DNA of 48,484 nucleotides from a virus (lineage: Duplodnaviria; Heunggongvirae; Uroviricota; Caudoviricetes), in the IMG/VR virus record IMGVR_UViG_2737471860_000008, positions 1 through 48,484 of that record. The stretch is one strand, 5' to 3'. The notes under the pieces are model-generated. The model was not told the origin of the DNA. It ran no database searches and saw nothing but the letters and a program-made list of their open reading frames with translations. Every line of letters begins with the position of its first letter. The first letter of the stretch is position 1. This document shows positions 24,844 through 26,457 of the stretch, piece after piece. The position numbers and the translations under genes were made by a program.

Positions 24844-26457
24844 GTGGCTATTTTTGGCAGCGGGATAATGTTCCGTCAGGGGAAGTTCGTCTTCCTGATC
24901 CAGCGCTCGGATGATGGCACATGGTGCCAGCCGGGCGGGACGATAGAGCCGGGAGAGTTAGCCATAGACGCCGCACGGCGCGAGGTGCTGGAGGAAACAG
25001 GCTATCAGTACGATGGCCCGCTGACGCCGCACAGCGTACATGGTGACTACCTGACCTACCGCGCCGACGTGCCGGAGCAATTCGAAGCGAAGATAAACGA
25101 CGAATCGCTGGCCGCCGGATGGTTCCATATTGACGATCTGCCAAAGCCGCTTCATCAGCCATTCGCTGAAATGCTGGCGCAGCAGGCGCTCAACGAAACC
25201 GACGTGGCCGCGCTCATCGCTGACGGAACGCTAAGCAGCCCGCAATATTTTTACAACATGTGGATGTTCGCCATCCGGGTGACCGGAACAGGGGTTACCT
25301 GGCGATCTGCAGATCAGGAGATGACGTTCCGTAACCCGGACGACTATCTCACCCCTGAATTTCTCCAGCGGGTAGCTGGCGTACCACTTATCTGGCTTCA
25401 CCCCGAAAAAAGAACACTTGATAGCGACGAGTTCTCAAAGCGCGTTATTGGCACCCTGACAAATGCCTGGGTTGCCGATAAGGGCGAAGTGTGGGCCGTT
25501 GCGCGTGTGTACGACGCCGAAGCTGCTGAAATTATGGCAACAAGGCAATTAAGCACCTCGCCAACTGTGAAGTTCTCAGAGGTTGCTCAATCAATCATTG
25601 TCGACGGTCAGCCTCTACTGGTGGAGCCATCCCCCGAGCTGCTCGACCACGTTGCAATTTGTGAACAGGGCGTGTGGGACAAGCTCCTTGCCCCTACCGG
25701 TGTTAAATCTGATTCCATTCCTGAAGAGGCTGAAAAGATGGACGAGGAAAAAATCGTAGCGCTGATTAATAAGGCGATCGATGCGCGTTTGGCTAAGGCC
25801 GACGAAGAGAAGGAAGCGAAAGCCAAGGCTGACGCCGAAGAGGCCGCCAAGAAAGAAAAGGCTGACGCAGAAGACAAAGAAGCGGAAGAGGCGAAAGCTA
25901 AAGCCGACGCGGAAGAGAAAGCCGCGAAGGAAAAAGCTGATGCTGAAGCCAAAGAAAAGGCGGATGCCGAAGAGGCTGAGAAAATGGCAAAAGAAAAAGC
26001 CGACTCTCAAATCCTCCAGGAAATTGCTGAGCTTCGCTCCCGCATTCCTACCGAACTGAGCGACGAAGAGCGCAACGAAGTTGCAGAAGCGCAGGTGAAA
26101 GCCGATAGCGTCTTCTCCAGCTTTGGCAAACGCGCCCCGATCCCGCTGTCCGGTGAAAAACCGATGGCGTATCGCCGCCGTCTGATGATTCAACTGCAGG
26201 AGCATTCTCCGGACTACAAAGCCGTCGATCTCTCTGCCATCGCTGATTCTCAACTGCTGAGCACTGCCGAAAAGCATATCTACGCTGATGCGCAGAAGGC
26301 GGCCAGCCTGTCAGTTGGTCCCGGTATGCTGCGCGAGATTAAGCGCGCCGATGCAACCGGTCGCCAGATCAGCACCTTTGAAGGCGATCCCGCCGTCACC
26401 TGGGCGCCGTTCCAGTCTGGCAAGCGTCAGGTCACCAGTTTTAACAACCAGGCTTAA
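24844..26457 (+). CDS. Fusion protein: N-terminal NUDIX hydrolase domain plus head scaffold/protease-like region with charged coiled-coil, 537 aa
   Basis: Canonical Nudix box [24 protein letters not shown] near N-terminus; downstream KADAEE/KEKADAE charged repeats typical of scaffolding proteins; GTG start with AGGAG 12 nt upstream. Confidence 0.65.

Follow-up and report, generated by a model that had tools for sequence, protein, structure and literature searches.

The gene at positions 24844 to 26457 (+ strand) of the IMG/VR virus record IMGVR_UViG_2737471860_000008, a 48,484-nucleotide (nt) tailed-phage sequence that is called the window here and was analysed whole, very probably encodes four modules in one reading frame: an N-terminal Nudix hydrolase domain, a prohead protease, a helical scaffold with its own in-frame start, and a C-terminal domain. 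The description Nudix-prohead protease with nested scaffold suits it better than the Nudix-scaffold fusion of the original prediction. The fusion predominates in a large protease family and is no oddity of the window phage. Neither the fusion nor the hypothesis on its role is new, both having been described computationally. The features of the gene are as follows.

24830 to 24834, + strand: Shine-Dalgarno sequence AGGAG for the full-length product, kept 5' of the GTG or TTG start in 36 distinct related contexts
24844 to 26457, + strand: full-length gene, 537 amino acids (aa), GTG start; Nudix, prohead protease, helical scaffold and C-terminal domain
24844 to 25179, + strand: Nudix hydrolase domain, residues 1-112, from PF00293, the AlphaFold2 (AF2) model, Foldseek and the ratio of nonsynonymous to synonymous substitution rates (dN/dS)
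24937 to 25005, + strand: Nudix box G32-x5-E38-x7-R46-E47-V-x-E50-E51-x-G53-Y54, read from the sequence
25195 to 25713, + strand: DUF2213/COG3566 head-maturation protease domain, residues ~118-290
25399 to 25401, + strand: codon of the invariant His186 (88 of 88 sequences), candidate catalytic His
25552 to 25560, + strand: codons of the invariant Ser237-Thr238-Ser239 (88 of 88 sequences), containing the candidate catalytic Ser
25726 to 25729, + strand: internal Shine-Dalgarno-like GAGG, 8 nt before the internal ATG
25738 to 26457, + strand: nested in-frame scaffold gene, Met299 to the stop, 239 aa
25741 to 26043, + strand: charged Ala/Lys/Asp/Glu helical region with KADAEE-type repeats, residues 300-400
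26062 to 26454, + strand: folded, conserved C-terminal domain, residues 407-537, common to both products and presumed to bind the capsid

Reading frame, domains and nested start

The 537-aa frame is uninterrupted, and its GTG lies nine nt 3' of the AGGAG, which is found just past the stop of the preceding gene. The corresponding start codon in relatives was GTG in 34 of 36 distinct contexts and TTG in the other two, and never ATG. The ATG of codon 9, from which the gene of phage RothC is annotated (4821-6410 of that genome), was rejected as the start. This ATG is missing from diverged relatives, in which the GTG and its Shine-Dalgarno sequence are retained. No frameshift splitting the gene, a possibility raised with the original prediction, was found: the full-length open reading frame (ORF) is continuous in 80 viral contigs and in the phages Chronis, RothC/D, Yersinia vB_YenM and Pantoea PdC23, and the identical 537-aa protein is present on 528 Enterobacteriaceae contigs. 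Because the ORF is conserved across relatives, the idea that two genes were fused by a sequencing frameshift or a gene-calling error is already refuted, and we give it a negligible probability. Nothing was found to support it beyond the codon-9 start in RothC and the fact that some pipelines call the 239-aa nested ORF alone, and the architecture recurs in 93 of 150 family representatives that are only ~40% identical.

The AF2 model of the full-length protein is divided into the Nudix domain (residues 1-112), the protease (~118-290), two long helices (301-338 and 361-400, separated by a low-confidence stretch) and the C-terminal domain. Pfam NUDIX (PF00293) matched residues 9-112 with an E value of 2.9e-16 and 60 bits against a cutoff of 21. 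Residues 32-54 agree with every fixed position of G-x5-E-x7-REUxEExGU. The canonical Nudix box that the original prediction placed within the first ~110 residues, citing the peptide of residues 31-54, is therefore present. The predicted local distance difference test score (pLDDT) of AF2 exceeded 94 over residues 10-112, which adopt the alpha/beta/alpha Nudix fold, and Foldseek aligned the domain to 4dyw_A with a target-normalised template modelling score of 0.73 (E 2e-7), the matching structures including MutT, Ap4A hydrolase and NUDX1. A PDB sequence search with the whole protein returned generic Nudix matches only and none for the body. The dN/dS of the Nudix domain was 0.07-0.12 in the window's own clade, similar to that of the protease domain. 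This value of ~0.1, together with retention of the catalytic Glu/Arg residues in 90 of 93 relatives, argues for an active pyrophosphohydrolase.

The original prediction had treated everything beyond the Nudix domain as a scaffold-like body. A scaffold module does form the C-terminal side, and the prediction had overlooked both the DUF2213 protease at residues ~118-290 and the nested start at Met299. Pfam PF09979 (DUF2213) matched residues 159-276 (25.2 bits against a cutoff of 22) and is a precomputed match in all close homologues, and the 'head maturation protease' families phrog_530 and phrog_2229 matched within residues 160-418 with E values of 1.7e-9 and 4.2e-8. A fold search of BFVD retrieved phage proteins named 'DUF2213 domain-containing', 'putative prohead protease' and 'prohead serine protease', and residues ~118-290 have the prohead-protease (gp21/HK97/assemblin) fold. 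Homologues are labelled head maturation protease in both RefSeq and PHROGs. We regard the T4 gp21/assemblin fold as established for this part of the body, which is probably a serine protease of head maturation.

Residues R145, G148, R154, R176, H186, G203, S237, T238, S239, P240, E261 and G276-D279 were invariant in an 88-sequence alignment of the family, and D268 and H269 nearly so. The family motifs I-x-E-H186-P-x-K and Q-L-S-T-S239-P may be set against LNHPP (His85) and GVSSRG (Ser140) of T4 gp21, and the spacing from His to Ser is 51-53 residues in the family versus 55 in gp21. His85 and Ser140, which were located with their motifs in the gp21 sequence, we take to be the catalytic residues of that protease.

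Since the fold search gives a protease fold, a mere fusion of the Nudix domain to a simple scaffold without enzymatic parts is already contradicted, and we consider it very improbable. In its favour are the charged helices and the place of the gene among head genes, but residues ~118-290 are a well-folded DUF2213 domain with invariant His and Ser residues, and the database labels of the homologues name the protease. Only the nested 239-aa product would fit a stand-alone scaffold. Two other labels for the body were discarded. 'TolA protein' was the sole NCBIfam match, fell below cutoff and arose from Ala/Lys/Glu composition, and 'glycosyl transferase', given to the Yersinia phage homologues, was without support in Pfam, PHROGs, NCBIfam or fold searches. 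Public annotation of the gene is inconsistent: the Yersinia phages call it 'glycosyl transferase' (5001-6632 in vB_YenM_29.18), and the Rac-SA53 gene (4007-5299) is labelled 'TolA protein' with the note 'nudix' despite the lack of a Nudix domain in that copy.

An in-frame internal start with a ribosome binding site was found at the boundary of protease and scaffold. Met299 lies inside a hypervariable, low-pLDDT linker between the protease and the helices, and is nonetheless shared by 78 of the 88 family members; five others have Val, which is compatible with a GTG start. Among 46 distinct DNA contexts of related loci the Met299 codon was ATG in every case. The GAGG was invariant in the 43 contexts that make up the window's own clade, relatives of ~55% identity included. 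The remaining three are the near-identical Chronis (also GAGG), Rac-SA53 (AGGTGA) and BcepB1A (GGAG). Within the clade the Glu codon inside the GAGG is always GAG and never GAA, against a gene-wide usage of 35 GAA versus 22 GAG, and the neighbouring codons vary synonymously. In the Burkholderia phage BcepB1A the aligned partner of Met299 is the annotated start of gp25, 'scaffold protein'. Because of this alignment, the window most likely has a nested scaffold too, a 239-aa product (25738-26457) encoded inside the Nudix-protease-scaffold gene. With GTG or TTG at the full-length start and ATG at the internal one, the pattern would fit an arrangement in which little of the full-length protein and much of the internal product is made.

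The charged KADAEE repeats reported in the original prediction are real; they occupy residues ~300-400 and include tandem 33/75-nt DNA repeats at 25803-25956. Residues 407-520 of the C-terminal domain were well folded (pLDDT mostly >90), and E438, Y443, R444, R446 and G514 were near-invariant in the alignment. Capsid binding by this domain is presumed. The exact 239-aa nested product (25738-26454) has been called as a separate gene on five public-assembly contigs, and its cluster holds many partial 'NUDIX hydrolase' entries without any Nudix domain.

Distribution of the fusion and related systems

Residues 115-537, with the Nudix domain excluded, were searched against 1.84 billion cluster representatives and yielded 1,980 relatives at a threshold of E<=1e-3, of which 557 reached E<=1e-30. 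Fusions were counted among the 150 best-scoring representatives, which stand for 50%-identity clusters and are ~40% identical to the query. A Nudix domain directly preceded the protease in 93 of the 150. Another 51 had an N-terminal extension of <=40 residues, effectively none, and the remaining six had other or longer N-termini. The pattern E-x7-RE-xx-EE was kept in 90 of the 93 Nudix-bearing representatives and the full G-x5-E-x7-RE-xx-EE-x-G in 82. In the protease tree the nearest neighbour was Nudix-bearing for 32 of 55 Nudix-less representatives and Nudix-less for 31 of the 93 with the domain. In Escherichia coli phage Rac-SA53, whose head module is the same, the homologue is 430 aa long and starts directly with the protease. 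Near-identical genes are found in the Klebsiella phages vB_Kpn_Chronis (as 'putative NUDIX hydrolase') and RothC/D, and homologues of 75-84% identity in the Yersinia vB_YenM phages and Pantoea PdC23.

The N-terminal position is not always filled by a Nudix domain, as representative P0210 carries a PBECR1 nuclease there. Two longer proteins were also seen: P0130 has DUF5710 and a Nudix domain behind a leader of ~420 residues, and P0249 (1,567 aa) has ribonucleotide-reductase domains before the Nudix domain and may be a gene-call or assembly fusion. When the Nudix domain alone was considered, its nearest phage relatives were fused to the portal (Bcep1/Bcep43/Bcep781/BcepNY3) or to the protease (BcepB1A), the families being phrog_15528 and phrog_3778. 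The Nudix domain embedded in the portals of the four Bcep phages is 36-41% identical to that of the window and falls at profile positions 525-651 of 794 in phrog_15528. An enzyme built into the portal in this way would of necessity be part of the virion, with 12 copies in each particle unless it is cleaved off.

The architecture has been annotated in BcepB1A as gp26/gp25 since 2006. RefSeq names gp26 'head maturation protease, COG3566' and the in-frame gp25 nested in it 'scaffold protein', and we found NUDIX at residues 46-118 of gp26 together with DUF2213 (E 1.6e-35). As in the window, the Nudix domain, DUF2213 protease, helical scaffold and C-terminal domain follow in this order, the gene is placed between the MuF-like and capsid genes, and the nested scaffold starts at the homologous Met. 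The two Nudix domains are 48% identical, whereas the protease and scaffold bodies have diverged too far for BLASTP. BcepB1A also differs in a leader of ~45 residues before the Nudix domain and in being a virulent Burkholderia myovirus, while the window belongs to a temperate enterobacterial phage of lambdoid type that encodes integrase, CI/CII, Q and Rz.

Nested protease and scaffold gene pairs are known from lambda (C/Nu3) and Mu (I/Z). In these pairs, as in the window, the protease and the scaffold share a C-terminal portion through in-frame internal initiation, and few protease copies are found among many scaffold copies. T4 gene 21 (1949-2587) is likewise annotated with an internal translation initiation giving a shorter protease, so that nested initiation recurs in prohead protease genes. 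Lambda C is a protease of the ClpP/S49 type, whereas that of the window has the gp21/assemblin fold; and unlike the window gene, lambda C/Nu3, Mu I/Z and T4 gene 21 are without an N-terminal Nudix or other effector domain. Sequence identity of the window protease to T4 gp21 and to herpesvirus assemblin (PDB 5jbl, 8j3s, 1fl1 and 1vzv) was 9-18%. DUF2213 is a Pfam family separate from theirs, and the likeness of the putative active site to that of gp21 is one of sequence motifs and spacing.

Nudix domains fused to MuF, portal and capsid-processing serine peptidase were described by Iyer, Burroughs, Anantharaman and Aravind (Viruses 2022, PMC9503650, sec. 3.5.2), who assigned the fusions to a T4 NudE-like clade and inferred head packaging, injection and countering of signals derived from NAD+ and ADP-ribose (ADPR). 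The hypothesis of the original prediction is thus already published as a computational inference. That work is a survey which gives one sentence to these fusions and does not include a nested-scaffold analysis or a frequency within the family. We could not confirm its clade label here: BLASTP of the window protein against T4 NudE aligned 34 residues around the box only (53% identity, pairwise E 1e-8), and the similarity to NudE appears to be limited to the Nudix box. The literature on DUF2213, on Nudix with head maturation protease and on virion proteomics of Nudix-bearing phages yielded no experimental work on the fusion. The original statement that the fusion was uncharacterised consequently holds for experiment and not for description, as it had been reported computationally (PMC9503650) and annotated in BcepB1A.

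Proposed fate and role of the Nudix domain

The Nudix domain is linked physically to a procapsid-internal protein, being in one ORF with the protease-scaffold. It is reasonable to suppose from this arrangement that the fusion would carry the enzyme into the procapsid, as the original prediction proposed, and delivery into the next host with an anti-defence role may then be conjectured. Two nested products would be made, the 537-aa protein from the weak GTG and the 239-aa scaffold from the internal ATG, both with the helices and the C-terminal domain. The common C-terminal domain would take both into the procapsid, where a minority of scaffold positions would bear the Nudix-protease. Once the shell was assembled the protease would digest the scaffold and itself, and the compact Nudix domain would be freed inside the head, would most likely stay there and would be ejected with the DNA. 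At the start of the next infection it would hydrolyse a nucleoside diphosphate linked to another moiety (NDP-X), for which ADP-ribose and NAD-derived molecules are the leading candidates. We put the probability of this whole chain, from the nested products through co-assembly, release, retention and ejection to NDP-X hydrolysis in the next host, at roughly 0.5. Its steps of co-assembly, cleavage, retention and ejection, and the substrate, we infer. More tentative, and in our view rather doubtful, is the specific form in which the ejected enzyme would destroy a pyrophosphate-containing immune signal or substrate (e.g. an ADPR-type molecule derived from a Toll/interleukin-1 receptor domain, or an NAD-linked one) before phage gene expression.

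There are precedents for head-loaded enzymes that act on arrival, as proposed here, in T4 Alt and the internal proteins and in polymorphic toxins and polyvalent proteins fused to MuF (PMC5512222, PMC9503650). These use a capsid-targeting peptide or a MuF fusion, whereas the carrier in the window is the protease-scaffold itself; and the T4 Alt and MuF effectors are toxins or ADP-ribosyltransferases, whereas the window enzyme is a hydrolase.

Several observations weigh against the proposed chain. The Nudix-protease junction in the AF2 model is very short and without an obvious cleavable linker, and a folded Nudix domain of 12 kDa could pass the tail channel only by unfolding or by squeezing through. 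His186 and Ser239 are the probable catalytic pair by conservation and motif resemblance, and a profile-sequence hhalign of the family against the T4 gp21 sequence was not significant. The nearest structures and families did not discriminate a substrate: they were generic minimal Nudix enzymes, and MutT, Ap4A hydrolase, NUDX1, NudC and Dcp2 scored about equally. No proteomic, biochemical or genetic data on any family member were found in the literature. About a third of the family, Rac-SA53 included, does not have the Nudix domain, which must therefore be dispensable for assembly and of conditional benefit.

The short junction without an obvious release site would sit well with action in the producing cell. 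There the Nudix domain, made late at capsid assembly, would destroy nucleotide immune signals or other NDP-X compounds, the signals being raised by defences that sense late virion proteins; the fusion would provide timing and localisation, and at maturation the domain would disappear or be degraded. Since the gene belongs to the head module, its late co-expression is to be expected. A preprint (10.1101/2023.05.21.541620) is reported to map evasion of the Type I cyclic oligonucleotide-based antiphage signalling system to virion-assembly proteins, and its text contains 'prohead protease' and 'scaffold', which suggests that immune signalling may be triggerable at assembly. Co-expression, however, needs no fusion, and the independent fusion of the same Nudix clade to portal, MuF and protease (PMC9503650) points to a common location in the head and not just to timing. 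We consider action in the producing cell unlikely, although less so than a role in assembly itself. In the latter the Nudix domain, for instance as a regulator or pro-domain responsive to nucleotides, would keep the protease inactive until the shell is closed, or would clean up nucleotides near the packaging motor, with no defence role. The domain is tightly joined to the N-terminus of the protease and is under purifying selection as strong as that on the protease, as this would predict. An assembly-essential role is nevertheless improbable because the domain is patchy among close relatives (a Nudix-bearing nearest neighbour for 32 of the 55 Nudix-less representatives) and absent from the same head module in Rac-SA53. 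The replacement by the PBECR1 nuclease in one member also fits an effector slot better.

Head module context and implications

The gene lies in a run of head genes on the same strand, as follows.

22598 to 24013, + strand: portal protein (Pfam Phage_portal_3, E 2.2e-20)
24010 to 24831, + strand: MuF-like head morphogenesis protein (phrog_324 'head morphogenesis', E 1.9e-28)
27347 to 28378, + strand: major capsid protein (phrog_264 'major head protein', with a weak match to Pfam PF09950)

The large terminase, portal and MuF-like genes are 5' of it, and an ORF at 26473-27333 precedes the major capsid gene on the 3' side. The scaffold position between the MuF-like and capsid genes assigned by the original prediction is therefore right as to the head module, but this extra ORF intervenes before the capsid gene. 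The major capsid protein is likely the substrate of the protease and the partner of the scaffold.

The product of the ORF at 26473-27333 (286 aa, phrog_6268) contains a domain of ~75 residues at 175-248 that has a counterpart of 45% identity in the 464-aa ORF at 30722-32116 (residues 62-135). Further matches of this domain were to 'virion structural protein' and tail-fibre PHROGs. A common module for the virion surface or its decoration may have been inserted into both a head and a tail protein. The same position is occupied in BcepB1A by the cement protein gp24, with which BLASTP found no similarity. The guanine plus cytosine content of the window rises from ~40-50% in the first 20 kb (early, regulatory and lysis genes) to ~54-61% across the head and tail module (20000-35000), suggesting a mosaic origin of the structural module.

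The analysis corrects the annotation of a protein that belongs to a common enterobacterial prophage head module, from 'NUDIX hydrolase', 'glycosyl transferase', 'TolA protein' or 'hypothetical' to head maturation protease and probable nested scaffold. Isolated, culturable phages with the fusion open the system to direct tests: Klebsiella Chronis and RothC/D, Pantoea PdC23 and Yersinia vB_YenM. The N-terminal site of the protease-scaffold looks swappable and could serve to load foreign proteins into capsids. If the enzyme is indeed ejected to act against immune signals, this site would generally accept cargo such as Nudix domains, the PBECR1 nuclease and others. A Nudix hydrolase that was loaded and delivered would act before transcription, a timing that differs from that of the known early-gene anti-defence proteins. 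With the domain on ~60% of the best-scoring representatives of a protease family of >1,900 cluster representatives, such an enzyme, if it destroyed immune signals, would rank among the commonest counter-defence enzymes that tailed phages package in advance.

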